A DNA stretch of 64,000 nucleotides from Cyanidioschyzon merolae (Eukaryota). Each line of letters starts with the position of its first letter. Within the stretch, counting starts at the first letter, position 1. The notes below the pieces were generated by a model, which did not search any database, was not told the origin of the DNA, and was given only the letters and a program-made list of their open reading frames with translations. Positions 7,586-51,019 of this stretch are shown piece by piece. The stretch is from NCBI GenBank assembly GCA_000091205.1, contig AP006490.2; one strand, 5' to 3'. Both the position numbers and the translations under genes were made by a program.

Positions 7586-8178
7586 GTTCGTGTGCAGTCG
7601 TCGATGTACGGGTTAGGCTCTCGAAACTAATCGTATAGAGTAGACCTGAATACAGTACGCGCTTTTGTCAAGTGCCTCGATCGTGCCAGGCGAGATGCAA
7701 GGCTCAAACCTCATGGCAGACATGGACGCTACCTGTGTGCACTGCCTCTGCCAAGATCGCCGGATCCGGAGGACGAAGCAGGCACCATAACTTGGACAAC
7801 GACAGCAGCATGGAATTGAATTGAACTGCCAGCAGTTCCAGAACATAACACGGGATAGAAGCAAAATTCAGGTCAGTTCCTTAATCCGGCGTCCGTGCGG
7901 CATGCATAAGAAGCATAGGGATGAAACGTATATCCGTGTTCAGGAACACCACCGTACGTTGTTTGGTTACGATCAATAAAACTAACGAAATTCCTAATGA
8001 GTAGAGCGATGCACACCTCATCCGCACGAGCGTAGGATACTACGATGGCTACGCTTTTGATTGAAGCGTCGAGAGGAATCGTGTCAGGCGCCTGCATCCC
8101 CTTGTATGTCAGGGCGGTACTGCGATGGGCGGGAGCGTCGGCACCAGCGACATAGCCTATAACAGGAGATCGTTCTGC

Positions 8179-10975
8179 GTGAGTTTCCGATCTAGGACAC
8201 TTGCTTTCCGCTGCAGCGCGATGCGAACACGCATGTGCCAATGCGGGGTGTCGGACACGTGTCCTTCATCGATCGGTGAGGCGTCTCGCGCGGTGCACGC
8301 ATCGCGCTCGGTGAGTGCACCTCGTAGATCGGGCAGTCAACTGACACGATGCGCATGCCGCCGTTGAAGAGTAACGCGATTGGGATCAGTAGCGTGTAGC
8401 TGTAACGTAAAAGCTGGATTTCAGGTGAGGTCTTAGCCAAGTACAGTCTTTCAGTTCATTTTTGTTTCAGCCCTCAAACAAGTGTATTCAAGTGTTTTTT
8501 TCGCAGTGTATAACAGAAGCGTTCAAAGAGCGTTCTTGTTCAAAAAAACTAAAAAAGGAAAGATATGAAAAAGCAAGTCGACGATCCTGGAGGCACAGGG
8601 TCGCCGGCTGCCAGAAAAAAAAACAAAAATCAGTACCGAGTCCAGAGGAAAAGGAGGAGAAGAGGAAGGACCGAAATGGGGAGGTCCTACGTCGAAGGCG
8701 ACAAGAAAGACGACTTTACGACCAGATGGTGGATAAAAGCTGTCTTCTTAAACATATCTATGATCCCTACAGGGAAAAGTTGCGAGACGCTATCAAAGAA
8801 CGTGTTGCGTCATACTCGAAGAGTATTGTCAAGGCGTCATCAGGACTAGTGCATTTGGCGAGGGAGATGTATCGCGACGTGGCGCACATGGAAACGGTCG
8901 AGATTCCGGACGAGTTTTTCGACAAGACCTGTATTCGTCACCTGATGGTTGGTAGCGAGGAAGCGCGGAGGGAAAATATGCTATTGCATGCCCTGCACGA
9001 AAACATCGCGGAATTCTGCTTCGAGGGTACCCCATTCAGGGGTGACCCGGATATTTACACATACGGGGCGATGAAGTACCTCACGAACCTGAAGAACCTT
9101 TTGACAATGAACCTGGACCGTTTCGTAGTACGCGCCGTATTTTTGTGCTCTACCCGCGCGTCTCTCGCAACGGGATATGGACAATTTCAATGCCATCACG
9201 AAAGATCGTAAGCATGAATATGAGGTCGAATTTGTCGACAAGAAGCCGTCACGCAGGAGAGCAAATGATGATTCCGTCATCCGTTTGGTCATACAAGAGC
9301 ACCGTGCGGTACTGGGGTTGGCGAATCCAACAGAAAGGATATCAGAGTTAAAAAACGATAAGGAAAGATACGATCGCCTCATTCTGCGGTATTTAGTGCT
9401 TCTAGACCTAGAACTTGAATGCAAGGCAGAGATGAAGCTGAGTGGGGAAAAATGAAGAGTGGGAGAGACGGAAGGCTTTCCTTATGGGTAAGCGCTTCAA
9501 CGTCGTACCAGTGTGCAACATCAAGTCGCATTTTGTGACCGTCGACTCCATAGTCCTTTACAGCATCATGATGGAGATCAGTCCGGAGTTGAATGTTAGC
9601 AGGGAGGAGTTCACCGGCGAAAACCGGGAGACGTACTGGAAGAGCATCTTCGATTTCAAACGTCTCAAAGTAAGCAAACAAAAGGTATTCACTGGGATGA
9701 TCGAAACCGATGGAGTAGCCATGTGTGTACACTCTCGGCGGTTGAAGAAAGATCGTCCTGGCCCGCCTTTGGCTTCGCCCGTGACGAAGGATGAAGAAAA
9801 CAAAGAGGAGGATCCTGCGATGTAGGAGGTAGTGGGCAACAACGTTGCCGTTGACGTGACGAAGTATGAAGATGAGAAGGAGGCGGAACCTGCGACGCAG
9901 GAGGTGGAGGATAACGACCTTGTCGTTGCCGCGGCGAAGTATGAAGATAAGAAGGAGGCGGATCCTGTGATGCAGGAGGTGGAGGATGACGACTTTGCCG
10001 TTGGCGCGGACCCCGGAAACACAAATATCATCACCATCGCAGCACCGAAGCGTGCGGAAGATGGTACTGGCGGCAACTTACGCCAGAAAGACATGTGACT
10101 TTTGAGGTTCTCGAGCGCGAAATACTATCGAGAATCGGGAATAATGAATGCGAGGAAACAATTCGAGATATGGTATGCAGGAGTGAAAGCGCATTTGAAG
10201 CGATCAGCCAGGTGACGAGCCGTGGAACGAACTTTGAAGCTTTTCGGATATTCGTGAAAGTTCGTGTTGCCCATTTGGAGGCGCTGTGGAAAGAGTATAT
10301 AAAGCCCAGATGGGCTCGTTTGCGTATGAATCTGTACTGTGGTAAGCAGCGTGCGTTCGCGAACTTTTTCAATCATTTGAGCACCCTGAAAGAGGACAAG
10401 ACTCAAAGGCTCGAAGTAGCGTATGGGGAGGGGCGCTGGCTCACCCAAAAAGGGTACACACCAGTTCCAACGACAAGAACTTACTAGGAGTGCGCAAGGC
10501 GTTTCGTTACGGTACCGATCGATGAGTTTCGAACATCGTACACACACCACGAGCTGGGGTGTACACTTCAGTGGGTCGAGATGGAAAAGTGTCAGCGGAG
10601 CTCTGAAAATACAAAAAAGTACGGACCGCTGACGGAAGAGCAAATGGAAAGGAGGGCGAAAGTTCGAGGGCTACTCGCATTAGTAAGTACAGTCAGTGGC
10701 AAGAAACGTATCGAGTTTGTGAATCGTGACTTTACCGCAGCTATCAACAGAACGAGATGTGCGGTGATGGAAGGTAGACCGCCAGACTAGACAAGAGAGA
10801 ACTTTGTTGGACAACCTCTCAAAGTGGAATCATATGAGACAAACTTGAAACAAGTAGTAGGTGGCCCGTCGAAACAGACTGGCACGCGTCTGCACTTCAG
10901 TTGGAGCCGTTTTGACTAGGGCGGGTCACTCGCCACTACTGTATACGGTCGGCGTCGTTCGACTTGCGAACGGCA
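8179..10975 (+). mobile_element. Family-I Fanzor/TnpB-like element, full-length but degenerate (copy B). It has a ~385-bp 5' leader, a ~2.35-kb nuclease ORF broken into at least six frames, and a conserved ~60-bp 3' terminal block. The right end lies ~63 bp upstream of the VAMP7-like ATG.
   Basis: Nucleotide and protein collinearity with the inverted copy at 45852-48498 over the whole length, including the non-coding leader (8179-8565 vs revcomp 48115-48498). Boundaries are set where similarity to the other copies stops: 'cgtgagtttcc...' on the left and '...gtcgttcgact' on the right. Confidence 0.7.
8565..10917 (+). pseudogene. Fanzor/TnpB-like RNA-guided endonuclease pseudogene (copy B). It starts 'MKKQVDDPGGTGSPAARKKNKNQYRVQRKRRRRG...' with an NLS-like basic cluster and is interrupted by several frameshifts and stops.
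   Basis: The segments collinear with TnpB are a RuvC-I-like '[24 protein letters not shown]' (cf. 'GIDLGxxxxaTxS'), a RuvC-II region '...RLEVAYGEGRW...', a 'PIDEFRTSYTHHELGC' block (cf. 'VdpaYTSQtCsxCG') and RuvC-III 'KRIEFVNRDFTAAINRTRC' (cf. 'DRDxNAAxNI'). Confidence 0.65.
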
Positions 10976-10990
10976 TTCTCTAGCGGTGCC
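10880..10990 (+). ncRNA. Candidate omega-RNA / right-end scaffold of family I. It spans the 3' end of the nuclease ORF plus the conserved terminal block. This is hypothetical.
   Basis: The ~60 bp immediately after the stop codon is conserved in all three copies: 'ctagggcgNNNNNNNcactactgta(c/t)acggtcgg(c/g)gtcgttcgact'. In TnpB/Fanzor systems the guide RNA is encoded at exactly this position. No expression data are available. Confidence 0.2.
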
Positions 10991-12551: not shown

Positions 12552-13337
12552 TCAGCGCATCGACGCCGTCAGCTGCCCCCAGGTATCATTGATTCGGAGC
12601 ACGGTCCACATGCCGAGCTCCGCAGCCGAGGTTAACGCGCCCTGTTGTGCGGCTGGCTCCAACCAGAGCTCTACCAGCGCTCCATTATCCACTTGAATCT
12701 GGCCGGTTAGATGCGGAGAAGCGTCGAGCACACTTCGGATCAGACACTTGCAAACGTATCCATGTGTAAACACAAGCACGATCACGTCAGTCTGTTCATT
12801 TTCCTCGAGTTCCAGTGACAATAGCGACAGCACCCGCTGGCTCATCCTTGACACCGCTCGCAGCACGCGTCGTTCGACATCCGCCTGCGCTTCGCCTCCG
12901 GGTGCTCGGAACTCGTACGGGTTCCGCGCCATAGCCTGGAGCGTCTCCGGTGTGTGGACCTCGCTACGCAACGCGTCTTCCCATAGACCTTGGTATACCT
13001 CGGCGAGGTCGTCAACCGGCTCCAGCTTCACCGGCTGTGCCACCTGCTCCAGCACCAGTGCTGCCGTCTGACGGGCACGCAGCAGCGGCGACGTAAACGC
13101 CACCGGAGCAAGCACCCGCCGACGACCTGCATCACCCGAAACTCCACCTGCATCACCACCGTCGACCCGCAGAACCTGTTCCAGGCGTATGGCGACCGCC
13201 TCCCCGACAACGCGTGCCTGGCGTTCCCCGCGTTCCGTTAACCGCGCCGCTTCAGAACGTCCCGCGATGCGCCAGCGCTCCACAACATTCGCCTCTGACT
13301 CCGCGTGGCGAATAAAAAACCACCGAATCCTGACCAT
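12552..13337 (-). CDS. Histidine phosphatase superfamily protein (phosphoglycerate mutase-like).
   Basis: 'FIRHAESEAN' (RHG-type catalytic motif with the catalytic His), 'LLRARQTA', and a downstream His in 'FTHGYV'. Confidence 0.6.
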   Translation of the reverse strand: MVRIRWFFIRHAESEANVVERWRIAGRSEAARLTERGERQARVVGEAVAIRLEQVLRVDGGDAGGVSGDAGRRRVLAPVAFTSPLLRARQTAALVLEQVAQPVKLEPVDDLAEVYQGLWEDALRSEVHTPETLQAMARNPYEFRAPGGEAQADVERRVLRAVSRMSQRVLSLLSLELEENEQTDVIVLVFTHGYVCKCLIRSVLDASPHLTGQIQVDNGALVELWLEPAAQQGALTSAAELGMWTVLRINDTWGQLTASMR

Positions 13338-13547
13338 GTATCCTTAGGACTCACCCAAATACACTCCAACATGCATCACACAAACGCATCCTACCATAAA
13401 AAGCTGCATGAAGCGCCCCACTAGAGAAACATCCCGCTGTGTACCAGCAGCACCGCATCGATGGTGCACGCGGCATCGAGTTGCGCGCCTGGCGGGGATC
13501 GCCACAGCGCCGCCTCCAGCCGCCGCGTCGACGCCGGACACGGCAGG

Positions 13548-13672
13548 CAGGTATACAGGGATACAGGTATTCAGGGATACAGGTATTCAGGGATACAGGT
13601 ATTCAGGGATACAGGTATTCAGGGATACAGGTATTCAGGGATACAGGTATTCAGGTATACAGGTATACAGGT
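13548..13672. repeat. 16-bp minisatellite (GGATACAGGTATTCAG) x~6.5, with degenerate flanking units. It sits in the ~350-bp divergent intergenic region between the PGM-like and RanBP1-like genes.
   Basis: Direct reading of 'cagggatacaggtattcagggatacaggtattcag...'. Confidence 0.9.
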
Positions 13673-13686
13673 AGGTAGATAGATAC

Positions 13687-14559
13687 GTGTGTTCCTCAGT
13701 TTCAAGGACGGCTGCTGCACAGCGCTTTTGGACCGCGATCAGAGCAGCTGGCTCTAACATGAGCGATCAAACTAGACAATTCTCGGAGAAAGAACAGGAG
13801 AGCGCACAACCTCGCAAGGAGGAAGCAGTGCGTTCATCGTCACCGGAGCAAGCATCGCGAACACCTCCTGCGCCTACCGGGTTTCGTTTCGTCGTACCTA
13901 CCACTGCCACTGCTACTGGTGGTGATGCTGGTCAAGGTAGTGATCGTGAAGCGAATCAGAGCGCTGCACCGGTGAAAGCTCCCCAGGTCGTTTTTGGCGG
14001 TGTCACCGAAAGCGTCGACCAGGACGTTGGTGCCGCTGATGACGACGGTGCAGCGGAGACGCTCGGCGAGGAGGACGCCTCGACTGCCGACTGGAAGCCC
14101 CTGGTGCAGCTTGACTTGGTTCAGATTAAGAGCGGCGAAGAGGACGAGGATGTCGTAGCAAAGTATCGAGCAAAGTTGTACCGCTTTGATAAGAGCATGC
14201 GAGAGTGGAAGGAGCGCGGCACCGGCGAGATCAAGTTTCTCAAGCACCGGGTCAGTGGACGCATCCGCCTGCTGATGCGACGCCAACAGACGCTGAAGAT
14301 TTGCGCCAACCACTACCTTTTACCAGAAATGCGACTGGAAGAGAATATGGGCTCAGATCGATCCTGGGTATGGACGGCCGTCGACTACGCGGACGAGGAA
14401 CGCGACGAGGCGGTTCTAGCGATTCGCTTTAAGGACTCGGAAACGGCAAAGCGGTTCTACGATACCTTCGAGGAGCTTCGCAAAGAGATGCAAAGTTTGC
14501 TTGTATCCGGCAAGTCGGCGACAGAACAATCGCGCCAAGGTGAGCAGACGGCAATCTGA
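13687..14559 (+). CDS. Ran-binding protein 1 (RanBD-containing, RanBP1-like). The ORF start is probably downstream of the listed one.
   Basis: RanBD core 'EEDEDVVAKYRAKLYRFDKSMREWKERGTGEIKFLKHRVSGRIRLLMRRQQTLKICANHYLLPEMRLEENMGSDRSWVWTAVDYADEE...AIRFKDSETAKRFYDTFEE' matches the RanBP1 consensus (WKERG[TV]GD[VL]K[LI]L.H, KICANH, [AS]IRF). Confidence 0.8.
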   Translation: MCSSVSRTAAAQRFWTAIRAAGSNMSDQTRQFSEKEQESAQPRKEEAVRSSSPEQASRTPPAPTGFRFVVPTTATATGGDAGQGSDREANQSAAPVKAPQVVFGGVTESVDQDVGAADDDGAAETLGEEDASTADWKPLVQLDLVQIKSGEEDEDVVAKYRAKLYRFDKSMREWKERGTGEIKFLKHRVSGRIRLLMRRQQTLKICANHYLLPEMRLEENMGSDRSWVWTAVDYADEERDEAVLAIRFKDSETAKRFYDTFEELRKEMQSLLVSGKSATEQSRQGEQTAI

Positions 14560-20117: not shown

Positions 20118-20559
20118 TAGGGTGCCGATCCTCTTGGTCTTTGGAGCTTGCGCGTGCCGTCAGGGTGCAGGTCGCCGCTCGCGAGTTGCGTTCCGGTACG
20201 CAGCGCAGCGTCGCTCCCTGCCAGGGACGAGTGCAAGTGAGACGCCTCGAGGGAACGTCGCGAACGCCCGAGTCGGTACGCTGTGACGGTTCCTGTTGAA
20301 AGATGCGAGACCGCTGCGATTGATGAGCAAGCACAAGCGAAGCAGCCAAGAGAAGAGCGCTGTAACGCGGGTCGGAAGACGTCTCTTGAAACACGACATC
20401 GCCCTGGGGCCGCTGAGCGCTCGACGCGTTTCAGACGAACATCGGGCGATGAACTGGTCGCTCGATACCTGCTGGGGGATGTATTTTTCTCGAACTGTTT
20501 TTTTAAATGTATCGTGTCGATCGTAGACGAGCGGTAATAAGGGCTTACGGGTTCGTAAG

Positions 20560-21700
20560 TGGTTTTAGGATTGTGGGTCGTGTTGCACAAGTGGCTGCTT
20601 CGACGCTTTGCTGCTCGATTTCGTTAAGGGAATCAAGATGATTCGCGATGCTTTTGTAAACCAGATTCCTAGAATACTCGATTGCTTGATGCAATTCGTA
20701 TGTTCAAGTCTCCACTCTTGTCCTTTGCTTACATTTCGCATGATGAAATCACGCTTTTTTCAAGTTTTCCTATTTCTTTTTTCGAAGCAACTGGAGAGCG
20801 CAGCAATACTTTCCACTGGATTGACGAGGAAAACAAGTCGACGTTGTCAACGAACGACTTGTTCACGAGCTCGTGTGTCCAGTGTCTGCAGAACGATTCA
20901 CGTCCCATAATCGGTTCGGTTCGAAATACGCACCTTAGGTTCTTTGTGGCCGTCTGGGAAGCGGCATTCGACACCAGCTTGGTATATCTGTTCAGAGACA
21001 CTCCATGCGGTTCCCGCCTCTTCTTTTCACATGGAAAAGGGTATTGGACACGGACTCCAGTCACTTCAGCGATCGCTTTCCGCGGAGCGCATGTCTCTGC
21101 TTTCAAGGAAGCGAGCTTGGACAGATCGAAATTTCTCGGCCTGTTCTCTAGTCTTTAGTTCTGCTTTTATTTGTTTCATCCTGGAAAGCATTGCGTCGCA
21201 CAGATCCTCCACCGAAAGCAAGCGTATGTGCTTGCAGATGCAGCATACTCGCCAGGTGTATCGCCACAAAGACGCCCGTACCCTTGGGTACCGCACTGGG
21301 CACGTAAACGATGGATAGGTACGTCTGGACCTGTCAAGGACGTGTACCGAGCGACGGCGCTAGCCCTCTGGTGCCACACGGCATCTCCTGAAACAGAAGG
21401 CACAGTGAACTTGCGGGAACACCTGACCACATGGAAGCGTTGCTGCTACGAAAGCCGCACCGAGGCCAGATACGAACACAATGAGAATGGCGAGCGAGTC
21501 GTCATTGCAACGACCGTCGGTGCATGAAATGCGTCGACAACAACCGGGAGCAGCGATATCGAGACTTGAATGCGGCCATCAGCATCCTTCAACTACGAAA
21601 AACGGATCTGGAAGCAGAGGTGAGACGGTGTTAATGACATCGGGAGATCAGAAAGGAGCAGAGAAAGCAGTCGCGGAAAAAGTCCACAAGAACTAGTGCT
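20560..21700 (+). mobile_element. Family-II composite element, copy a. It carries degenerate coding segments (seg A, seg B) and a TnpB/Fanzor-like C-terminal remnant. It lies in the intergenic region between the Nup155-like and USP-like genes.
   Basis: Seg A 'VKGIKMIRDAFVNQIP' (~20650) is similar to 'VPGIRVIRDALEQAFV' in copy b. Seg B 'DTPCGSRLFFSHGKGYWTRT' (~21020) is similar to 'SSDFCLRCLHGEGSWTYS'. The micro-ORF ~21485-21633 is 'EWRASRHCNDRRCMKCVDNNREQRYRDLNAAISILQLRKTDLEAEVRRC'. Its composition is AT-richer than the flanking genes. Confidence 0.5.
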
Positions 21701-22819
21701 GACGCTCTGGTTACCAGACGCATCCCACTTTATGCTTGCATGGGTGCAATTACTTACAGGTTTTGCGGTAGAGTCGCTGGACAAAGCGTTGCTGGATCGA
21801 GCGAGTACGCATCGCTACGTGGAAACCCCCAGACTGCTTTTGATGAAGTGTTCAGAATTTGGTCAGGGAAATGAAGTCTTCTCTCCCAATAGAGGCAGTG
21901 TTTGCGCTTTTGTTACCTTGCAACGAGCCGCGTCTTTGCTATGTTGTGAGAAAACAGCCAAGAATGCTATGGTCCAAGACACGACGCATGCGACAGTTCT
22001 GGGTTCCACGGAGCTCGGCCCTTGAAACACGATGAAATGGACCTCAAGCTTCGACGTATACCCCGCAGTCTTTACCTGAATCAAAGTGTGTTTCAGGAAC
22101 GCCATCATTCACAGCGAATAGCCTGAAGGCAGCGCTCATGGTTTCTCGTCTTCCTCAAGTGAGAAACAGGGTGAAGAAAGCGACACCCATGGACCGTACG
22201 CCAGAATCCGTTCCCTTGCGCTGCTCTCTCTCTCTCGCGCGCCCTGCTGGTGAAGGTGTGCGCAAAGCCTCAGCCGAGTTCCGCAAAACTTTGGTAGCTG
22301 GCGGGGAACCGCGTTCTTTGGCCCTGCATACCGAGAGCGGATCTACAGCGTAACGCCATGGGAGCGTCACAAGCACCCGTCGCACTGCACTTGATCGGAT
22401 GTTGAAGCACCGGTGTGATGACCACCACCAGCAGTCTCACGGGATACAGTGCTTGAATGACTCATGATTTCCCCAGTAAGCGACTATTCGCAGTGCCCAT
22501 ACGCTCCCGTCTCTCAAGTCGTGATCCAAAAAAAGCGTCGCACCGCAGCGTGCTCGCAGACGCTCGGAAACGCCAGTGATGATACCACGTTTCTGAGACA
22601 GGTTTGCAGCACCCGGCCCTGTTGCCAACGATAAAACCGCAAGCCTCTGTTGAGGCTGCACGACCTGACGCGAATGCGCCTGGAGCAGCGCAGGAACACG
22701 CCACGAATGTGCTTGTCCCGGGCATCCTCCAGTCCAGTAATCCTGCGTCTCCTGCATGGATCCGAGGAATTCCATCAATAGGTCGATGCGAATCCCTTAT
22801 CCACCTGATTTGTTGGACT

Positions 22820-26122: not shown

Positions 26123-26307
26123 CCCAGAAGTGATGCTTCCCCACTTCGCTGGTTAGTTGACCCAGTACTCCAACTTTGCGCCCAACTTGTGATTCTTGGG
26201 ACGTTTCTGAGCGCCGTCACCGCACGTGTTCTGCGGCTTCGTAGCACGTGTTTTCGGCTACCGGACAAGCATTGATGCCTCTTGGCGTTCGCGCGGCAAC
26301 GGGGCGA

Positions 26308-26530
26308 TCACCAGCAGCTGTGCAGGGCTACATCCACAGATACGACTCTATGGGCTGTATAAGGTGTTGCTATCTAGCGAGATGTATGCTTTCAATGAAA
26401 TTACCAGCAGCTGTGCAGGGCTACATCCACAGATACGACTCTACGGCCTGTATAAGGTGTTGCTATCTAGCGAGATGTATGCTTTCAATGAAATTACCAG
26501 CAGCTGTGCAGGGCTACATCCACGAGTCCT
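26308..26530. repeat. 93-bp tandem repeat, ~2.4 units, ~190 bp upstream of the USP gene start.
   Basis: The unit 'accagcagctgtgcagggctacatccacagatacgactcta(t/c)gg(g/c)ctgtataaggtgttgctatctagcgagatgtatgctttcaatgaaatt' is repeated at ~26310, ~26403 and ~26496 (partial). The overlapping ORFs show a repeating 31-aa string. Confidence 0.85.
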
Positions 26531-27984
26531 TCGCAAGAGACGTGCTCCTAGCAATGGATGGGGCAGCGATACATTCCATGTCGAACGGTACAATCTGGGG
26601 TCAGTGGATACAAGCCATTGTACAGGATTACTGAAACCTGCATTGAGCCGCATTCATTAAGGCATTGAGGAGAGTTCAGAAGATCCGTTAAAGCGGTGGA
26701 GATAAACTTACCGCCAAAAGAACCTGAAAGCGCACAGCATATGGCAGTGGAAAGCGCTCTGGTGAATGCTGCAATCCTCCGAGTGGCTGAGCAGCGCCCG
26801 CATTGCTGGAGTTTTATCGAGTCAGCACCAAAGCGATGGAACTCCGGAAAGCTCCATCTACCGTATGACAAACTTCATACGTCGATGCTCAAAAATTCAA
26901 CCGTATGCGACGATCTGCACCATGCAACCCCAGCGGCTCCAGCATTAGCCGAGCATGACCATCATCCATGGTAGCTTCAGATGCTAATGGATCTCTTTCG
27001 GGTGCTGGCATATTTTAAATGCGGATCTACAGAGTGTAGCGTGACATGGCCTTGCGAGATACAGGATAGCGCGAGAGCATCTCGCCAAGTGCGCATCACA
27101 GGATGCTGGCCTGGAAACGGTACCCGCCGCGTTCGTCGACGAGACCCGTTCGATGCCTCAGTGCGTAAAGAGTCTGGCGAGCGGTTCATTCTGAGCAGCA
27201 GAAAAGGTCTTGAATTTGTGCAGCAGCAGCAGCAGCAGCGTTACCAAGAACTGCTGCAAGCGGGTCGAACGGTACACCGGTGCAACAAAGAAAGCAGGTG
27301 CGTTGCATACGGGCATTTGCCTTGCCGCGTGTACCTAGAGTCCACCACATACAACGAGCGTCATCGTCATGGATTGCCATTCGCCGACCAAAAAAAGTCG
27401 CAGATGCATCGTCCAACCATGACACTGGGACGTCTCAGACTACAGCGAGCGATGATGATGGACGCCTCTCTGTGTCCAGTCATACATTGAATCGTAATTG
27501 CCCGATAAATCACGCCGAACGGCGTGCTATGTGGCATGAATCGCGGCATGTCGTCCGCTTTTCTTGCACATGTCGTGGCGAATGGCTATTTATGATCATT
27601 TTTATCTGAACTCGGAGGAGCACGACGTATCTCGATACTGCAATCGTGTCTGTGGCCAACGCGAACGGCATCAATGGTAGATGCTCCCGCAGTGATTTTG
27701 AAACCCATCGAGGTCCTTGAAGAGTGCTGGATTCCTATGTATCATTCATAAAATTCTAATCACTGCCGCTTGTGTTCGGGTCACGACTACCAAGTTGAGC
27801 TGCGCGAGCCATTCAGCGTACTCTGACGACAGACGAAGACTCCTCTCCCGGGAGCAAAAACAAGTCTCGTTCGTTCGATCTTCAGCACTCTGCAGTGTAA
27901 CCGAATCAGCAACAGGCGCCCCGAAACGAGCGCTCTATCTGCATCGCGCCTCTACGAGCCGGACAATGCTGCTAAGACCCCGGA

Positions 27985-28737
27985 TCACTGGACGCTACAA
28001 CACGCGTCTTTGCGTTGGTCATGCGGTTCGTGTTTCGCTACCCGACGTGACTCATTCCCGGAGTCCGTCGGACGGTGCCCTGCACTCGCGTGCGGCGAAC
28101 GTTTCGGCAGCTCGGTTGCCTTCGGTCCGGCTTGGTCGCTCTTGGGCCGCTCCCGCCGCGCCTTCAGACCCGCCAGAATAGCTGCGTCAAAGACGGCCTT
28201 GAGTCCGACCTGCGTCAGGGCGGAACACTCGAGATACTGGATCGCGCCGATCTCAGTGGCTAGGCGTCGACCCATGTCCGCCGTGATTGCGGTTTCCCCT
28301 CGTGCTTCCAGCTCTTTCACCACCGGATAGCTTTCTCTTAGATCGAGTTTCGTGCCCACTAGAATGATGGGCGTCTCAGGGTTCGAGGCACGCAGATCAG
28401 GGACCCACTTCACGGCCACGTTCTCGAAACTCGCGGGCGCTACCAGCGAGAACGCCAGGATGAAAACGTCAGCGTTCCAGTACGAGAGCGCTCGCAGCCT
28501 CTTATAGTCTTCTTGACCAGCTGTATCCCACAGCTCAATAGGTACCTCTTGCCCGTTACAGAGCACCACGGCGCTATAGTTATCGAAGATTGTCGGCACG
28601 TAGTCTGTCGGGAACTGGTTGCTCGTATAGCTCATCAACATGCATGTTTTTCCAACGCTTCCATCACCTACGACCACGACTTTAATGGCAGAGTCGTCTG
28701 CATCAAACGTCTCTGGAGGAAGGTGTACTCCGTGCAT
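27985..28737 (-). CDS. Rho-family small GTPase (Rac/Cdc42/Rho-like). It has a short N-terminal extension and a long basic C-terminal tail ending in a CaaX-like 'CSVQ'.
   Basis: '[40 protein letters not shown]...[66 protein letters not shown]...[19 protein letters not shown]' matches the G1-G5 boxes and the Rho-specific regions. Confidence 0.85.
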
Positions 28738-29029
28738 GGTCGCCAGCAGACAGCCGCACCAAAGTACACGGCCTCGGAATAGCGCTCACCCCCGAGTGAT
28801 AGGACTGGTGGAATTCGCGCGATTGCTCCCGCGCTCGCCGCGACATCGACGCGCGTGGACACGCCACCCGGGGGTCCAGGGACGGTCGATAGTAGCGCCT
28901 TGTCGTTTTTTTCTTATCGTTACACCGGGGTTAGGTGAGCATGGGACATTGAACAGCTCGCTCTATTTATGTGTTGAGCATGTTTCTCCCACCTTTTTAT
29001 TAGGTACACGGCGTTGACACTCGAAGTGG

Positions 29030-30240
29030 ATCAATTAGGGTGTGAGGAATCGTAGGTAGATATGGGATTCCTGGTCGTATGTTCGGAATGGCTCCGTCGA
29101 CGCTTTGCAGCTGGAACTCGCGACGTTCCTGGAATCCGGGTGATTCGCGACGCACTCGAACAAGCATTCGTAAAAAAACCGATATCATTATCAGATTCGT
29201 ATTTGCGGGCCTCTACTGTTCTGCTCTCCTTACGTATTGCATGCTGCAATTACGAATCCGCCAAGTTGTCGATCTCTGTGTGTCAAGGTAACTTGTGGGG
29301 GCAGCAGTTCGCACTGCTGATCCAACGAGACAAAGCTAGGCGTCTTGTTTGGCGGCTTGTCCACAAGCACAGATCGAACGTTCTCTGAACTTGACACATC
29401 AAGGAATCGTTATCGTTCGCAAGGCAAATCCTCCTCGCCTAGCGAACATCAACGAAACAGTATTCGACGTGGGCACGATACCTCTGAAAGGATATGTTTC
29501 GAGTGACTTCTGTCTCCGCTGTTTGCATGGAGAAGGGTCCTGGACGTATAGTTGAGTTATCGCGTGAATCGCTTCCAGTGCGGAGTCTGTCAACGCTGTG
29601 AACGCAGAAAGCGTGCAGGGTTCACAGCGTCTCGACTTGCTCTAGTACCTGAATCGTTCATCTGGGTCTTGTTTCATCATGGGAACCAACGCGTTCCACA
29701 AATCCTCTATCGAAAAGGAAGGCTTGCACTTGCATGTGCAGCACGCAGCGTACTTGCCGAGGTGATCGTCCAGAAAAAGCCCTTAATCATTGGACACGGC
29801 ATCGGGCACTGAAACGCATGAGAGCATCGAGGGTAGCCCTCTGTACCCGTCAAGGGCATATACCGAGCGATGAAGCGAGCGTACACGCTCCACTGGTCAA
29901 CGCCTGGAATAGCAGGCGGCCTTATGGGAGTATGGGGAAATCTGACGCGAATGAAGTGTCAGCACTGAGCACAGCGCACCGAGACAGTGTTTGAAAAAGA
30001 TGCAAATGGCAAGCGAGGCGTAGATCGCCATCACCGCCAGTGCATGAAATGCGTCGACAACGACAGGAAACTGCAAAATTGGGACTTGCACGCCAAAACC
30101 AATATCCTTCAACTGCTGGCAAAGGAGCTGGAGCGACCGGAGAGACCGGCATTTTGAACGCCAGAGATAAGCGTGTTGGGAATGAAGCAATGGCAGGAAA
30201 AATCCGCAATTCCTGTCGTTGATGACAATATGGCGAAATC
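29030..30240 (+). mobile_element. Family-II composite element, copy b. It has seg A, seg B and the TnpB/Fanzor-like C-terminal remnant, and lies between the Rho GTPase gene and the next plus-strand gene.
   Basis: Seg A 'FLVVCSEWLRRRFAAGTRDVPGIRVIRDALEQAFVKKPISL' (~29062-29200). Seg B 'GTIPLKGYVSSDFCLRCLHGEGSWTYS' (~29470-29555). Remnant ORF ~29969-30157 '...NGKRGVDRHHRQCMKCVDNDRKLQNWDLHAKTNILQLLAKELERPERPAF'. Nucleotide similarity to copy a extends over ~1.1 kb. Confidence 0.5.
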
Positions 30241-30585
30241 CAGACGGTAACGTCTACGCCTAGTTTGGCTCAGTGGGTCTGTTCCATTTTATTCTGACCT
30301 GGGTAGTGTAGTCCATCGTTGTTTCATAGGCCGCATGGGCAAAGCGTCACCTCATGCGGCTCGCCATGCGTTTCTCGTTCGACTGGCGCTTGAATCTCGC
30401 ACCAACATCAAACGTCCAGAAATTGTATGGTGCGCTCAATTTCCTACCATCTCAGACTTGAGTTCACTTCGAACATAATCAAACGCTGAAGCAGCACTGA
30501 AGCTGAATCCTCTATTCTCGGAGCTTTTCACTATGCTAAACTGACTTGGGACCCGTCGGCAAAGTTTTGAAATAGTAGCGACAGC

Positions 30586-32847: not shown

Positions 32848-33794
32848 AAAGGAAACGCGCATCGTGCAGTTCCGGATGAGATTGGCAAGCCGCCCCCGCA
32901 CCTGGACGCGTAACGTACGTGGTGCCGCTGCCGCCGCCGCAACAGCAGCAGCGAGCATGCCCTGAATACGCTACGCATCGCTCCGAATCAGAAAAAGAAC
33001 AGAAATGGACCACGAATTACCGGTTAGAGAATCGTATCTTTCCTGCTATACGGTTCGCGTTGACCGGTTATTCGAAATTTTACGTTCTAGGCGGAATGCT
33101 CCGCTAGCAGGACGAGTCTGCCAGGATAATGTTTCGTGCTCCCGCCAGCGACAGGTGATGTAGCGAGACATGAACAACTCGTCCGCAACGCTCTTTATTC
33201 TGCGACTAGGGACAGTTAAGGTGCGTATGGGCGCCGCCCATGTTGCAATTATCTCCTAGCATATCGCTTCGCGCTGCCTGCAGCAGCGCGTCTGCCTGCA
33301 CAGCTTGCAGGCTCCGAAAATGATAAAGAATCCCGACTCCGTATCAGGTGAAGCGTTCCTCGATCCGACGCTCTCATTGGTATGGCAAAGCCGCTCTGTC
33401 TCTGTGCTGCATCCGTGCCAGAGGCATTGGCGCTATTGCTGGTGCTCAAAACAGGTACTCTGCGCAAGACGGAACGCACGGAACGACCATTATCTCTGAG
33501 GGGCATTGTGCATACTGGAACTCGGACGTAGTGCTACGCATGACAGACGCTTTCACCAGCACCGATATCCATCACGTAACCTGGAGCTCCTTACACAAAT
33601 ATATCAACGTTCTGTCGATCGAAATCGATATTCTCTCAGTATCTCCGAGAGGATGGATGGGTAATGGACCTTGAACATACCGCGAAGCATGACAGGCGCT
33701 TTCACGGACACCGATACTCATCACGGAACCTCGAGTTCCAAATCCAAATATATCAACGTTCTTTCATGTAAGAAACAGGATCGCCCCCGAATCG

Positions 33795-39030: not shown

Positions 39031-39899
39031 TGCCGGACGGGGGCTGTTTTTTGTTCCACCCGTGGACACCAGGAATAGATTCCGCAACAGGTTGCGCTTG
39101 CGATAGCGCGGAGGCATTCGATAGCTTTATCTCGTGACGCTGATTCAAACAGTGGTTTCGGGGGCGGGACAACAAAGTCGTATGGGTGCGCCTGAAGCGT
39201 ACCCAGGGTTTCCCCGGGTACGCTTCACGAATTGGCGCTTCTGTAGCCGGTGGTTGCACTCGGAGCTAGCCAAAGTCGCGGACAAGGGTGCGTTCCCGAA
39301 AAACCAGCGATCGCCATTGTCGATGAATCCGCGGGCATATTACCGAGAACAAAACCTCGACGATGCAGAGGTGCTCCTTCTATGGGTATAGAAAAAGTGT
39401 CGTCCGGTGATAGATGTTCCATGCATTCGACTTGCATTCTGGCCTCTGTCGTTGCAATGAGACGGAAAACACTGGTTGTCCGAGCAGCGGCGCTACCCTG
39501 CCAGGATTTCCATGTAAAGCCTGACTGTGGTTCCGAATTCAGGGAATACTGCAGAAACAAGGATCATCGCCTTTGGTCTCATCCCACGATTGGCAATCGC
39601 TTGTTTCCCCGAAACCGAAGACATGCTGTTTGCAAGCCAGAACCCTCGGGTAAATGTCCATGGTCGTGGCAAGCCTGGCGGCAAAGGTGCTGAGGCAGGC
39701 ATCCCTTGAAGCAAGGCCCTTGTAAGCATCGTGATGCAGCATGCTTGACGCCTCTGTTTGTCGTCAAGGTCGGTTCCGTCGGAAACGTTTGGTGCGTCCA
39801 CGTGCGAGGGCACGACATCCGTGTCGGATTCAGGTGGGAAACTGAACTACTGGCTCTGTTCCAGCACTTTGATTTCTTTCGAACTTTATGATAGATGCA

Positions 39900-40450
39900 T
39901 AGTCTTGGCATTTGCAGTTCAGTGGCAGACGCTCACAGATTCATTCGTTTTTTACGGAATTTCGGTCGTCACTTTGGCGTGGTTTCTGCGACGGTTCGCT
40001 GCTGCAATTCGATACGTCACAGGAATCAAGGTGATTCGCAACGCCGTCGAACAAGCGTTCATAGCGTAACCGGTATCATTATAGAACCCATGTGTGCGAG
40101 GCCCCACGCTTCTATGTTGCTAATGTATAGGTTGCTAAAAAAAGCGCATTCATCGAACTCTTAATCTTCTTGTTTGAAGGAAGTTCATGAACCGAGTAAT
40201 TCGCGCGGCTTCATTGACGTGGACAGATGCTCGGTGTGGTCCAGTGACAATTCCTTCACCAGCTCTTACAGAAAGTTCACTGAAGTTAACATTCCGACTG
40301 AAGGATTTTCTTCAAAGGACGAATCCGCTGGAATTTTATGGCCATCGAAGAAACGGCATTCAATACCAGCGTGATACCTCTTACAGGATATGCTCGTGAA
40401 GGCTCCTGCCTCCCCTGTGTCCCTGGACAAGGGTCTCGAACTTGATTCAT
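39900..40450 (+). mobile_element. Family-II element, copy c (seg A and seg B are clear; the 3' part is degenerate), in the intergenic region downstream of the Tab2-like gene.
   Basis: 'WFLRRFAAAIRYVTGIKVIRNAVEQAFIA*PVSL' (~39985-40085) and 'GYAREGSCLPCVPGQGSRT' (~40390-40445) align to copy b at both the nucleotide and protein level. The segment ~40590-40720 ('ACACSGEHANQC...RIQVSILDQ') is only weakly similar to the zinc-finger/RuvC-III remnant. Confidence 0.4.
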
Positions 40451-42853
40451 CGCAGCGAGCGTTTCCAAGGGAAAGCGCGTCACCGCTTTGCCAGACGGTA
40501 GATGAGACGGACTGAAAATGGCCGACTTGTTCTCCAGTCTTGATTTCCCTTCCTGTTCTCATTTCGTCACCGATTACATCGCGTTCTGCTGTACCCTTAT
40601 CGAACGGAACAACGCGCGCTTGCGCGTGCAGCGGTGAGCACGCTAACCAGTGTCATCGCCCAGATGAAGTACGTGGTCCCCGGGGTACGGCAACGGGTGC
40701 GGAAACCGAACAACGCATTCAGGTCAGTATCCTGGACCAAAAAAGGAAGTGTAGCAAGGTTTGAAGCGTGCATTTACACCCGAAATGTCGGGCCTCCAAC
40801 CAGGTGGTGTTCTGAGCTTACGGAAGCATCTGACCACAGCCATGTGTTACCCTTACAAAATGCGCTTCGTGACTGTTTACAAAGGAGATGCATCGGCAAA
40901 CGAAGTGTAGATGCAGCTTTTGCATCCGCATCGGACCCATGGTCGAGCGTTGGAATCGTCGAAATCGACATTTATCGCTGTGATCAACGTCTTACGACAA
41001 CTGATAACATCGCTGGGGATGCCTACGAAATTGAGGTATTCAAAGCCCGACACAAGAGACAAAATGGAAGCAGTCGCAGCAAATCCCGCAAAGGCTAGTT
41101 ATTCATTGCAATCGGATGTGATCCAGGCCTTAGAGAGGACGCCTGCGTCACAGGACCCATCCTGTTTTCTTCTGACACGAATGTTGGCAAGCGTTAATTC
41201 ATACGAGCAGCGCTCCCGCGGATTATTGGATCCAGCACATCCCGTTGGCTGCTCGTTTGTGTATCTGGCACAAGGGCATGTGTCGAAAGCGTTGGTCGCG
41301 CGAGGGACTCAACTTGCGTGCTTCCGACTGAAACCAGGGGCGGCAGCCGTACCGAAATGCAGCCTCTCTTCTCAGACGGGCGGTTGGTTGTGCATTTGCG
41401 CACGACGATGCACTCGTGGGCGTCTGGGCCGAATCCAGCACGCTTCGTGGGGCGACGAATTCCTTCTGGCTACCGCGGCATCGCTCTAAAGCTTTGGAAA
41501 AGTAGCATTGCTGACTCTGTTATATGGTCATGCATGAACACTTGCAGCTTCGGCACTAGGTTGAGGACTCCAATTGCGGTATGACTTGCATTGTGAACTC
41601 CGCTGGACCTTGAAGAGCTTTATGTTGCATAAATCGTCTTATATCCAGGGACAGATGCGCGCCGATCCAGTCGATGACCTCTCGTACAGCTCCCTCCTTT
41701 CAAGCAGATTGCACCGGGATCTGGGGGCAACGTCCGGATAGATTTGGAGGAACCGTCCTCGTTCCTCGCGCTGCCCAAAACATCGACCGAACCGTCAAGT
41801 CTCTGCTCACAGAGGAATACCGGTCTTCAGATGGTGAAAAGCGGAAGCGGAACCATGCGTACCCCGACGGCCGGCTTCGGGTGCGTACCAGTGGGAGTCC
41901 GCCTCGTTCCATCGATCCGACGTCGTGATCTGGTGCTCTATACAACAACCAAACTGATCTGCTCCAAGTGTGTCCGCATAGAATCAGTTGTGTCTCGGTG
42001 AACAGAACACGTTTGCTTCAGCACTTTGTTTCCATTGTGCGGTACGGTGTCGACGCGAATACGCCACCAGTCTCTGCACAAGGAGCGCCAATCCTGCCAC
42101 GCAGTAGGAAACGCATGCCAGGCATCGCAGCAAAGCCGGCGCATGCGTATCATTTTCTGTTGGACGGCACCCGCGGATCCAGGTTGTCGAGCGCACAGTG
42201 ACTGGGCATCTTGCCAACTGGGCCGTTCATTCTGCACAAGTTTTCTACGAGGCCGCATCTCGTTCGAGACGGATTTCAGCCCGGCATTGCTGCTTCTTCT
42301 CGACAGAATGAAGCTCGGTGTACCACACCGCTGTTCCACGTCGTTGCCCAGACGGTACCTCCATGGTTGCCGCGATTCTTCGACGAGTTATCGTCCAGCT
42401 GTGGGTTCCGCGAAAAGCGCACGCCAGAAACTAGTCCTCTTCGCGCTATGCGTTCTGATGCATAGCATGCAACCAGTTACGGCTTCCGCATTCAAAGTTT
42501 CCCGTTCATTCCGAGGATCTCGTACAATCACAGTACCGCTCAGCCGATGGAAGCACACGAAGAAGCTTCTGCATGGTGCACCCATGCAGAGGCAGTCCGG
42601 ATGAGGAACTCAGCGAGTTTCGGGATCCTACACCGTGTGCTTGTGACGGCATCATGTCAGGTGGCGCGCTGTTGGCGCTGCCGCCCATTCACCAGAAAAC
42701 GAATGGCCAGCATGGAACGGATTTCGACGCACGGGCTGTAGACGATCTGTTGCCATAGATGCGCTAATGTTAGTACTGTTTCCGTAAAAGCGCTGTTAGA
42801 GACTGGTTACCCTTCGTAGAGGAGCAAGACGCTGCGAGGCTTTGGGCTGACTT

Positions 42854-45851: not shown

Positions 45852-48498
45852 GAACCACAGTCGAACGACCCCGACCGTGTACAGTAGTGACAAACACGCC
45901 CTAGACAAGAAGTCGCGAACTGGCGTACAGACGCCTCCCCGTCTGTTTGGACCGGCCCCCTACTACTGCTTCCATTTTTTTCTCATATAGTTCGACTTTG
46001 AGAGGTTGTCCAACAAAGTCCTCTCTTGTCAGCTCTGGATGTCTCTGCTCCAGCACCGCACATTTCCTTATATCGATAGCGGCATTAAAATCTCGATTTA
46101 CAAACTCCATCCGTTTCTTGCTATCATTCGTTGTACTAACCAGCGCAAGTAGCCCTCGCACTTTCGCTCTCCTTCCCATTCGCTCTTCCTTCAGCGCACC
46201 CTACTTTGCTATGTCCTCAGGGCTCCGCTGGCACTTTTCCATCTCGACCCTCTGAAGTGTACAACCCAGCTCGTGGTGTGTATACGATGTTCGAAATTCA
46301 TCTATCGGCATTGTACCAAAACGCCATGCGCACTCCTTATACGTTCTCGTCGTTGGAGCTGGCGTAGTTCCTTTTTGGGTCTTCCATCGCCCTGCTCCGT
46401 ACGCTACTACGAGCCATTGACTCTCATCCTCCTTCATGGCGCTCAACTTATTGAAAAAGTTGGCGAACGCCCGCTGCTTCCCACCGTACAGATTCATTTG
46501 CAGACGAGCCCACCGGGGCTTGGTATACTTCCCCCACAGTGCATCCCAACGAGCAACGCGAACTTCCATGACTTTCCGAAAAGCTGTAAAGTCCGCCCCG
46601 CGACTCGTCACCTCGCTCAAAGCTTCCAGGTGATCCTTCATTCCTGCATTCCATGTCTCGATTTTTTCCTCGCATTGATTATAAAGGATTCTCGGTAATG
46701 TCTCTATCTTTAGAACTGAAAAAGACACATGTCTTTCTGACGTAAGTTGCCGTCAGTACCATCTTCCGCACGCTTCGGTGCTGTGATGGTTATGATATTT
46801 GTGTTTCCGGGGTCTGCGTCAACGATAAACTCGTAATCCTCTACCTCTTGCGTCGCAGGATCCTCCTCTTTCTCATCTTCATGCTTCGCCGAAGGCAAAG
46901 CCGAGGGCGGAACATGGCGATCCGCCTTCAGCCGCCCATAGTGTACACACAAGGCTACTCCATCGGTTTCGATCATCCTAACGAAGAACATCTGCTTGCT
47001 CACTTTCAGAAGTTTGAAACTGAAGATGTTCTTCCAGTACGTCTCCCGATTTTCGCCGGTGAACTCCTCCCTGCTAACATTGAACTCCGGACTGATCTCC
47101 ACCATGATGCCATAGAGGACTCTGGAGTCGATAGTCACAAAATGCGACTTGATATTGCACATTGGAAACATGTTGCAGCGCTTTCCCATTAGGAAAGCCT
47201 TCCGTCTCTCCCACTCTTCATTTTTTCCTCACTCAGCTTCACCTCTGCCTTGCGTTCGAGCTGTCGGTCCAGAAACACGAAATAGAGCAGGATGACTTGA
47301 TACCATCTTTTTTCATCAATTTTCAACTCTGATACCTTGTCTGTTGGATTCGGTAGCCCCAGTACCGCACGATGCTCTTGTATAACCGCACGGATCGCGG
47401 AAGCTTCATTCGTACTCCCTTTTGACGCCTTCTTGTCGACGAATTCGACCTCATCTTCATGCTTGCGATCGTACGTGATGCCATTGATAATCGCCCATTT
47501 TCCACTGCGAGAGATGCCCGGGTAGAGTGCAAACACGGCGTGTAACATGAAACGTTCGAGGTTCACTGTCAAATGGTTCTTCAGGTTTGTGATGTACTTC
47601 ATCGCCCCATAGCGGTAAATATCCCGGTCACCCCTGTATCGAGTACTCTCGAACCTGTAAAAGGGATGTGTTTCGTGCAAGGCATGCACTAGCATATCTT
47701 CCCTCCGCGTTTCTTCTCTACAAAGCATCGGGTGACGAATACAGGTCTTGTCGAAAAACTCGTCTGGAATCTCGACTGGTTTGACGTCCGTCACTTCGCG
47801 ATACATTTCCCTCGCCAAATGCATCAGTCCTGACGACGCCTTGAAAATACTCTCGGAGTACGAGTCGACACGTTTTTTGATAGCGTCTCGCAACTTTTCC
47901 CTGTAGGGATCCTTGATATGTTTGAGAAGACAGGTTTTCACCACCATCTTGTGGTACGGTCGTCTTTCTTGCAGCCTTCGACGTAGGGCCTCCCAATTTC
48001 GGTCCTTCTTCTTCTCCTCCTTTTCCTCTGGACTCGGCACTGTTTTTTTTTCTGCCAGCCGGTTACCCTGGGCCTCCAGGATCGTCGACTTGGATTTTCA
48101 TATCTTTCCTTTTTTTCGTTTTTTTGAACAAGAACGCTCTTTGAACGCTTCTGTTATATACTGCGAAAAATCAATCGAATATTTTTACTTGAGGTTTGAA
48201 GCACAATCGAACTGAAAGACTGTACGTTGCTATGACCTGAGCAAAAATACAACTTTTACAGTAGATCTACACGCTAGAGATCAGGATCACGTTTCGCTTC
48301 CATGACGGAATACGCGTCTTGTCTCATGCCTGCCCGATCTACGAGGTGCGCTCGCTGAGCGCGTTGCGCGCACCGCGCGAGACGCCTCACCGATCGATGA
48401 AGGACACGTGTCCGACGTCGCTTCGGCACATTCGTGTTCGCATCGCGCTGCAGCGGAAATCAGCTGTCTTAGATTGGAAACTCACGTATCTAGCGCCG
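45852..48498 (-). mobile_element. Family-I Fanzor/TnpB-like element, inverted copy C, the most intact copy. It sits between the HIT gene (~160 bp from the element's 3' end) and the C2H2 zinc-finger gene (~285 bp from its 5' end).
   Basis: Collinear with copy B over its whole length on the minus strand. It ends in the shared 3' block (revcomp of 45852-45913 = 'ctagggcgtgtttgtcactactgtacacggtcggggtcgttcgact') and starts with 'cgtgagtttcc' (revcomp at ~48498). Confidence 0.7.
45901..48200 (-). pseudogene. Fanzor/TnpB-like RNA-guided endonuclease, nearly intact (~740 aa). It is split into four ORFs (47189..48040, 46710..47189, 46201..46728, 45901..46179) by two single-nt homopolymer frameshifts and one in-frame TAG. 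There is an additional A9-run frameshift between the ATG 'MKIQVDDPGG' and the main frame.
   Basis: RuvC-I '[24 protein letters not shown]', RuvC-II region 'QWLVVAYGAGRW', 'MPIDEFRTSYTHHELGCTLQRVEMEKCQRS' (zinc-finger position), and RuvC-III 'KKRMEFVNRDFNAAIDIRKCAVLE'. The frame breaks are at 'gaggaaaaaatgaag' (A6, where A7 would be continuous) and 'atgtgtctttttcag' (T5, where T6 would be continuous). The TAG aligns to TAC (Tyr) in copy B. Confidence 0.65.
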
Positions 48499-50689: not shown

Positions 50690-51019
50690 ATAGAACAAGT
50701 GAAGTCTACGACAAGGAACATTATTATTTGGCGCGCAGCATTCCTGGCGCCCACATGTGCTCAATTTACGTGCGTACGCACTTGCCAGTGTGCAGGCGTA
50801 TGCGTCCATCATACCATTGCGTGCGGAAGCGCTACTTGGCAGCCTTGAATGCAACCTAAAATTCCTCCGATGGGCTGGCATGTTTGCTCACGCTCTATCC
50901 GTAGTAGATTCGATTCGAACGCGGGCCCGCACGCATTGTTGCTGCCTGTCGATTTTCTCCCCGAACTTTTCTTAAATGGTCAGCCTCGACATTTGAAGAG
51001 CAGCAAGAAAGGCACACGG

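Follow-up and report, generated by a model that had tools for sequence, protein, structure and literature searches.

What did segment A of the Family II repeats of Cyanidioschyzon merolae encode, and has selection on an encoded protein left its trace in the copies that exist today? The question arises from a stretch of 64,000 nucleotides of chromosome 8 of C. merolae 10D (the window in the following) in which blastn and nhmmer searches find exactly five copies, a to e, of an interspersed repeat called Family II (Table 1). For a short part of this repeat, segment A, a preliminary description had compared copies b and c, noted a divergence biased towards synonymous changes and deduced past purifying selection on an encoded peptide 'WLRRRFAAG...'. 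Our analysis leads to a different picture. Family II very probably represents dead cut-and-paste DNA transposons of the IS630/Tc1-mariner type, in which segment A is former helix–turn–helix (HTH) DNA of the transposase gene and whose copies have decayed essentially neutrally. The derivation of segment A from protein-coding DNA is upheld by this reading. Neither the frame nor the peptide is, nor the argument from selection, the transposase frame being located one base upstream of the frame proposed at first (the proposed frame in the following).

Additional copies were gathered by exact look-ups of open reading frames (ORFs), by one metagenome scan with a degenerate IUPAC DNA pattern and by nhmmer over the retrieved loci. 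Altogether at least 26 distinct Family II copies containing segment A were recovered, the five window copies among them; six of the 26 were added afterwards as a replicate, with the consensus left unchanged. Pairwise identity among the copies is 0.51–0.64, and identity to the consensus is 0.69–0.79, each copy being ~26% diverged. Since the copies are more similar to the consensus than to each other, their relationships are star-like as expected from one old burst. Homology among the full copies ends sharply at ~1.4 kb and the consensus comprises 1,399 nt.

One base upstream of the proposed frame the consensus contains an ORF of 308 codons which opens with ATG, has a single stop and reads MHSLDIRSAAIRAYGF..FGVAPSTLCRW..RRPRTRVRKITD..LSVSRQLVGAAIRAAGLTRKKT..FMAIDETAF..GYAPRGSR..CFIMDNIAFHK..AYSP. 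The ancestral codon phase corresponds to 29004+3n in copy b, and the proposed frame (29062/29089+3n) is shifted by +1. The consensus matches the NCBIfam profile of the IS630-family transposases, NF033545, with E=3.7e-8 (first 184 amino acids) and E=3.1e-17 (261 amino acids), the alignment spanning profile positions 20–238 of 299, and it matches Pfam DDE_3 with E=7.9e-10 (39.2 bits, curated cut-off 28.6). In addition there are weak matches to HTH_Tnp_4, HTH_32, HTH_33 and HTH_Tnp_Tc3_2 in the correct order. The arrangement of an IS630/Tc1-mariner transposase, i.e., paired N-terminal HTH motifs and a DDE_3 core, is therefore present, in the consensus only. Segment A corresponds to the first HTH motif ("FGVAPSTLCRW") and the linker to the second one; in the transposase phase it reads ..FGMAPSTLCSWNSRRSWNPGDSRRTRTSIRKKTDIII.. 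in copy b and ..FGVAPSTLCRWNSLRHRNQDDSRRPRTRVRKITDIII.. in the consensus. When the consensus transposase was compared with copy b by tblastn, the match extended over 29004–29753 with 54% identity (E=2e-73), and the translation of copy b in this frame is interrupted by about a dozen in-frame stops. Across the copies there are 1.34 stops per 100 codons in the transposase frame, 3.63 in the proposed frame and 3.30 in the third frame, and in the consensus 1, 7 (in the 185-codon core) and 5 stops, respectively. Stops are thus rarest in the transposase frame, as would be expected if only this frame had been open in the ancestor. The catalytic triad of the consensus is incomplete: the motifs ..IDET.. 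and ..IMDN.. are followed by ..AYSPRGSPRRSP and a stop before an NPIE-like third residue is reached, which fits a non-autonomous or deleted derivative. A search of the PDB sequences with the consensus transposase returned nothing significant.

The ends of the element are in line with this assignment. The left end of the consensus, CTACACCCGCGTCGGATGAAAATGGAACA, and the reverse complement of its right end, CTACACCCATGTCAGAATAAAATGGAACA, are identical at 24 of 29 positions and form terminal inverted repeats, which are degraded in copies a and b. In copy c the termini still pair (39815–39828 with 41171–41184, 14 nt, 86%). At both tips of the consensus TA is found within C-TA/CACCC...GGGTG/TA-G, which would agree equally with a CTAG target as in IS630 and with inverted repeats that extend further. 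A minus-strand element resembling a long interspersed nuclear element, with 5′ truncation, was considered and ruled out, because all full copies share the same limit of homology at 1.4 kb and are bounded by inverted repeats.

The right part of the element contains a second coding remnant. Read in a frame different from that of the transposase, the ~125 codons that lead up to the right end give ..VVDIREHLTIAKCHRCERR..FRLCMKCVDNSRKQRNRDLNAAINILRLL.. and carry the zinc finger and RuvC-III signature of TnpB/Fanzor proteins (..LTIAKCHRC..(22)..LCMKC..(8)..NRDLNAAINIL). This consensus tail matches Pfam PF07282 (Cas12f1-like_TNB) with E=8.2e-7 and 29.5 bits at a cut-off of 26.3. The C-terminal motif [TS][TS]-x-x-C4 zinc finger-x(5,50)-RD (Bao and Jurka 2013; PMC3627910) is found in the tail as well, with the [TS][TS] pair half kept (T-I). 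By tblastn the consensus tail is 55% identical to copy b (E=5e-54), whose translation over 29702–30229 contains 5 stops. A full RuvC fold, with the RuvC-I aspartate 125–275 residues before the zinc finger, is not present. The tail is a fragment and not a Fanzor gene, because only ~125 codons precede the stop and the sequence upstream of them is the transposase relic in the other frame.

By protein homology the tail is also connected with a second repeat of the window, Family I, to whose 3′ end it has a tblastn match (46491–46069, E=6e-6). The 3′ end of Family I carries an RD..AAINI motif resembling RuvC-III of TnpB, and together with its size this motif agrees with Family I being the published 'WSV repeat' or Fanzor1 element CMe-1A, which the data fit. 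The WSV repeat has been described with 253 copies of 3.2 kb making up 5% of the genome (Nozaki 2007; PMC1955436), and has been identified as the C. merolae Fanzor1 element CMe-1A (Bao and Jurka 2013; PMC3627910). At the DNA level Family II and Family I (3.3 kb) show no similarity beyond a motif of ~27 nt, so that Family II does not belong to WSV/CMe-1A; for lack of this similarity, an identity of Family II with TE-N2_CMe, or with the 5′ end of WSV/Fanzor, was likewise ruled out. Some minor observations concern the same sequences. Family I sequence occupies 7152–10977 (plus strand) and 45859–48486 (minus strand) in all, which includes an additional solo copy of its last ~430 bp at 7152–7581, and copy 1 of Family I contains three tandem units of 75 bp (9780–10004, 77% identical) of which copy 2 apparently has fewer (46816–46891). 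The DNA motif coding for RD..AAINI in both families also has a match of 27 nt (74%; E=4.3 with nhmmer) at 813–839, which may be a tiny TnpB-like fragment or chance.

From these parts an ancestor of ~1.4 kb can be reconstructed with ~30-bp terminal inverted repeats at both ends, a transposase ORF with two N-terminal HTH motifs and a DDE_3 core breaking off before the third catalytic residue and, in the other frame, ~125 C-terminal codons of a protein resembling TnpB/Fanzor, with zinc finger and RuvC-III motif 'RDLNAAINI'. This ancestor may have arisen from a mariner-type element with a Fanzor gene and have become non-autonomous by an internal deletion. Both termini, the greater part of the transposase gene and the 3′ portion of the Fanzor gene would then have been spared by the deletion. 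Judged from the family, the transposase would bind the inverted repeats via its HTH domain, excise the element and insert it at TA. One old copying burst would then have been followed by independent, essentially neutral divergence of the copies.

With IS630/Tc1-mariner (ITm) elements such as IS630 and ISY100 of Synechocystis, Family II shares the paired HTH motifs, the DDE_3 domain (IDET, IMDN), the short inverted repeats and the terminal TA; unlike in these elements, all copies are dead, the ORF falls short of the third catalytic residue, a TnpB-like fragment has taken the place of the 3′ end or is fused to it, and a TA duplication is not demonstrable. Elements of the mariner type carrying Fanzor1, namely PGv-1, PUl-1 and PUl-4, are known (Bao and Jurka 2013; PMC3627910). 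Like them, Family II combines in one element a mariner-like transposase and a TnpB/Fanzor homologue in which a C4 zinc finger is followed by RD, with inverted repeats and flanking TA; in contrast to them it keeps ~125 C-terminal Fanzor-like codons without the region of the RuvC-I aspartate, and no intact copy is known. The WSV repeat/CMe-1A resembles Family II in being an interspersed, decayed repeat of the same genome with a TnpB-like C-terminus that shares RD..AAINI, but it is 3.2 kb long, has 150–253 copies and inverted repeats have not been reported for it, whereas Family II measures 1.4 kb and possesses inverted repeats. Our literature search did not find a description of Family II in C. 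merolae; it is at most a not-yet-described family, of mariner type with a Fanzor remnant. It would link a mariner-type element to the TnpB/Fanzor sequences known in C. merolae from the 'WSV repeats'.

It remains to be explained how copies b and c came to suggest another frame. The seven codons differing only synonymously were found again: in 87 nt (29 codons) there are 24 differences, with 8/5/11 at the three codon positions. The sequences are present as described, although the W codon of copy b is at 29089 and not at 29088 (29 codons, 29089–29175), and copy c has its W codon at 39980 and TAA at 40067–40069 instead of extending over ~39988–40075. A Nei–Gojobori count yields S=23.0, N=64.0, Sd=11.5 and Nd=12.5, hence pS=0.50, pN=0.20 and pN/pS=0.39, and the synonymous excess has P=0.005 by Fisher's test and P=0.0057 by mutation simulation. 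The pair is, however, one of 10 pairs in 6 frames, among which chance alone would produce ~0.3 results of this kind. Taken over all ten pairs that the five copies form, pS is 0.40, pN 0.31 and the ratio 0.78 in the same frame, and the column-wise changes per site in segment A are 0.84/0.81/0.89 for these copies without any periodicity. The synonymous excess of the pair b/c thus reflects the fluctuation of a small sample. What had drawn attention to segment A is the similarity of the two copies in this part: they are 76.6% identical (29098–29191 vs 39989–40082) and ~57% identical in the remainder of the element. This difference could be coincidental, or gene conversion over a short tract might have linked the two copies, which lie 11 kb from each other.

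Nor does the proposed frame look like a former gene. In the consensus, segment A comprises 46 codons (GLTDSYVVLGFSVVFSEWLLRRFAAGIRYVTGIKMIRDALEQGFVK) between two TAA, with no initiating ATG, and the consensus has 8 stops in 252 codons of this frame, which was thus not open in the ancestor. That every copy has stops is correct insofar as all copies are dead; copy b, however, has an uninterrupted ORF of 108 codons (29062–29388) in precisely this frame, which metagenome gene callers report as a gene. The TAA of the family consensus is replaced by AAA in b, which keeps this ORF open. Database searches with the peptide, as had been suggested, brought up no relatives except ORFs that overlie further copies of the repeat. 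With the consensus peptide no Pfam family was matched, and a profile of the five peptides compared with 1.84 billion representative proteins gave 46 matches, ~38 of which are ORFs of 30–213 amino acids on Cyanidioschyzon metagenome contigs that overlie other Family II copies; the remaining ones match in several stretches of long proteins and are apparently low-complexity false positives. At least 11 of the ~38 ORFs stop right after '..FVK' or a close variant, and the read-through codons found at this stop (AAA, CAA, GAA, TTA, TCA, TAC) are mostly one-base variants of TAA. We therefore regard the TAA closing segment A as ancestral. An exon followed by an intron ('GTAAAA' after FVK) was considered as well. 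C. merolae is almost devoid of introns and this reading was dropped for that reason; the TAA merely closes a non-coding frame. That the copies resemble each other as 'peptides' in whichever frame they are read results from their differing mostly by substitutions and not by insertions or deletions. Such repeats call for caution in general, because a single pair can show a nominal synonymous excess in the wrong frame, and here the true frame of the ancestor, with its homology, came to light through the family consensus built from many copies.

A larger set of copies allowed us to estimate dN/dS (omega). The columns fixed by the DNA pattern fall chiefly on the first and second codon positions of the proposed frame and were for this reason left out of the statistics. 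In segment A the first 20 copies give omega values of 0.70 for transitions and 0.74 for transversions in the proposed frame, and the six further copies 1.14 for both; all 26 copies together give 0.80 and 0.82 in this frame and 1.32 and 0.92 in the transposase frame. Over alignment columns 30–390, omega for all 26 copies is 0.88 in the proposed frame and ~1.0 in the transposase frame, for which values of 1.0–1.2 accompanied the analysis of the first 20 copies. For strains compared with each other, copy b has 8 and copy c 14 differences per kb, to be set beside ~6–15 in intergenic and ~3–7 in coding DNA, a coarse comparison of single-nucleotide polymorphism densities being all that strains of 99.2% identity permit. 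In the stretch 22701–42845, compared with the 99.2%-identical metagenome strain L001, the differences within genes are not concentrated at third codon positions (for instance 6/7/5 in the ubiquitin hydrolase (UCH) gene and 6/4/4 in CMH185C).

Several points weigh against Family II as neutrally decayed relics of an IS630-type element. Neither the third catalytic residue nor a clean TA duplication could be shown, and an intact autonomous copy was not found. Copies b and d of the window match no family when translated on their own, so the assignment rests on the reconstructed consensus. The published Fanzor element of C. merolae lacks inverted repeats (Bao and Jurka 2013; PMC3627910), and the published inventory of the genome (Nozaki 2007; PMC1955436) counts no more than eight class II elements, whose transposases are most similar to those of bacteria. 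These eight elements, which we compared by description only, may be the best-preserved members of Family II. An IS630-like transposase would give weak BLASTX matches to bacterial transposases of the kind reported; on the other hand, the at least 26 distinct copies recovered exceed eight, and for C. merolae genomics they would add an IS630-type element with a Fanzor-like tail beyond the published number. Finally there is a weak and unexplained phase effect: the pooled mismatches of the 26 copies in columns 30–390 are 710/781/862 at positions 1/2/3 of the proposed frame, with an excess at position 3 in the first 20 copies of P ~7e-4. Base composition or class, CpG and di- or trinucleotide context were tried as its cause, and none of them, learned from the rest of the element, predicts it.

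Could this effect mean that, prior to the decay of all copies, purifying selection acted on a peptide encoded in the frame W-L-R-R-R-F-A-A-G...? The nominally significant pair b/c and the low omega of the first 20 copies speak for it, and so do the mismatch rates of these copies in segment A, 0.224/0.216/0.286 at positions 1/2/3, the third position being the most variable one in 12 of the 20. In ten copies found without reference to segment A the rates are 0.222/0.197/0.307 (one-sided P=0.002). Yet the low omega was not replicated in the six new copies, whose rates in columns 30–390 (0.218/0.304/0.270, P=9e-4) are those expected for the transposase frame, with its position 2 lowest (0.218) and its position 3 highest (0.304). 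Transversions at the wobble position are equally frequent whether synonymous or not (0.074 vs 0.065, P=0.27), and the antisense frame sharing this wobble position gives the same transition omega (0.77), which points to an effect of phase and not to selection specific for a frame. Since the proposed frame in addition has no start, ends at an ancestral TAA, has no homologues outside the repeat itself and overlaps a frame with significant transposase homology, we consider selection on this peptide highly unlikely. The preliminary description itself had named dN/dS near 1 in a larger copy set as evidence to the contrary, and with a pooled omega of ~0.8–0.9 and 1.14 in the independent replicate the claim fails by this standard.

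A second, overlapping constraint on the 5′ 360 bp, be it a signal in DNA or RNA or a small ORF overprinted on the element while its ancestor was active, would account for the pooled phase effect and for its confinement to columns ~30–390 (about 28990–29350 of copy b), beyond which it vanishes. The effect is small (~20%), however. The 26 copies show no significant heterogeneity (P=0.63), the first 20 and the next 6 differing nominally (P=0.014), and the ranking of the phases in columns 30–390 is not the same in these two sets. The candidate frames having that wobble position each contain 3 stops in the consensus, and a star-like family of dead copies should not keep selection on each copy. We therefore think such a constraint improbable, and give hardly more than a slight chance to the narrower proposition that the phase excess is real and records an overprinted second frame or a phase-locked constraint over the HTH-coding 5′ end of an active IS630-like ancestor. 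It is equally difficult to believe that the copies are functional non-coding elements, for example kept because the Fanzor-like 3′ end and the right terminus provide nearby genes with a guide (omega) RNA or with a regulatory module. All full-length copies do retain the TnpB-like tail and the right end, and copies occupy intergenic gaps adjoining genes; but copies d and e lack the tail entirely, and conservation is flat along the element, with the consensus base present in 0.70–0.77 of the copies and least often (0.58–0.60) in the last 100 nt. Moreover, a search of the window against Rfam matched no RNA family, and the divergence between strains is at the intergenic level. Decayed IS630/Tc1-mariner-type transposons remain our preferred explanation of Family II, and the coordinates of their relics are collected in Table 1.

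Table 1. Positions in the window of the Family II copies, of the parts of copy b and of Family I
Feature	Position	Strand	Remarks
Copy a	20420–21749	+	Full length; 5-nt deletion and 1-nt insertion within segment A
Copy b	28920–30308	+	Full length, ~1.39 kb; consensus ends of a 14-copy alignment mapped to the window
Left terminal inverted repeat, copy b	28921–28950	+	Degraded; reads TACACCGGGGTTAGGTGAGCATGGGACA
Transposase relic, copy b	29004–29969	+	HTH, HTH, then DDE_3 with IDET- and IMDN-type motifs; many stops
Segment A, copy b	29062–29200	+	Relic of about codons 20–66 of the IS630-type transposase; first HTH and linker
TnpB/Fanzor-like C-terminal relic, copy b	29702–30229	+	CxxC..CxxC zinc finger and RD..NAA..NI RuvC-III motif; frame differs from that of the transposase relic
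Right terminal inverted repeat, copy b	30279–30308	+	Reads TGTTCCATTTTATTCTGACCTGGGTAGTGTAG
Copy c	39813–41186	+	Full length; segment A peptide 39980–40066, TAA 40067–40069
Copy d	50893–51688	+	Truncated after ~760 bp of core; left end approximate
Copy e	53127–53913	-	Truncated like d, inverted relative to d; left end approximate
Family I, two copies	8178–10964; 48486–45859	+; -	~3.3 kb, 80–87% identical, inverted orientation

Within copy b the core match obtained with nhmmer extends from 28959 to 29712. Copies d and e, both truncated, point towards each other and flank ~1.4 kb of unrelated sequence (51689–53126) which contains an ORF of 195 codons (52438–53025, minus strand) without a Pfam match. 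Their arrangement resembles a composite element, yet the identity between d and e is only ~57%. Outside the window, a Family II copy at 1614–3893 of metagenome locus L014 (also in L015, L029 and L022) is interrupted by an insertion of ~1.5 kb, and this insert is itself repeated (~70% identical) beside Family II copies in L049, L020 and L037, being a third repeat family.

The genes of the window are those of a eukaryotic chromosome. According to their Pfam content the long ORFs encode a Nup155-type nucleoporin, the ubiquitin hydrolase, a kinase, a Tab2 and a CRAL-TRIO protein, and five of them are exact matches to C. merolae 10D proteins (BAM79842, 79843, 79845, 79846 and 79849). An origin of the window from bacteria (planctomycetes) or from a prasinophyte was ruled out on these grounds. 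When the ORFs of Family I and the intergenic ORFs were searched against Pfam, a Ras-like gene (27985–28737) was the sole match; we take it to be the single accession between UCH and CMH185C. From the consecutive protein accession numbers we infer that the gap between the Nup155 and UCH genes and the gap from ~39030, where the Tab2-like ORF ends, to the CRAL-TRIO gene are free of annotated genes, and hence that copies a, b and c are situated in unannotated intergenic gaps. A tRNA search of the window found none.

Several other repeats were noticed in the window. A tandem array with an 8/16-bp period (CAGGTATT/CAGGGATA) and ~20 eight-base steps at 13516–13695 is flanked by ORFs at 12552–13337 (minus strand) and 13687–14559 (plus strand). 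The intergenic region between the UCH and the Ras-like gene contains a 93-bp tandem repeat (26307–26523, 2.3 units, 97% identity), and this region together with the unannotated ORF 26981–27490 shows the highest divergence between strains in the compared stretch, with 15–20 differences per kb. A direct repeat of 129 nt (33488–33616 and 33637–33765, 74% identical, spacing 149 nt) lies directly upstream of the start codon of CMH186C at 33795.

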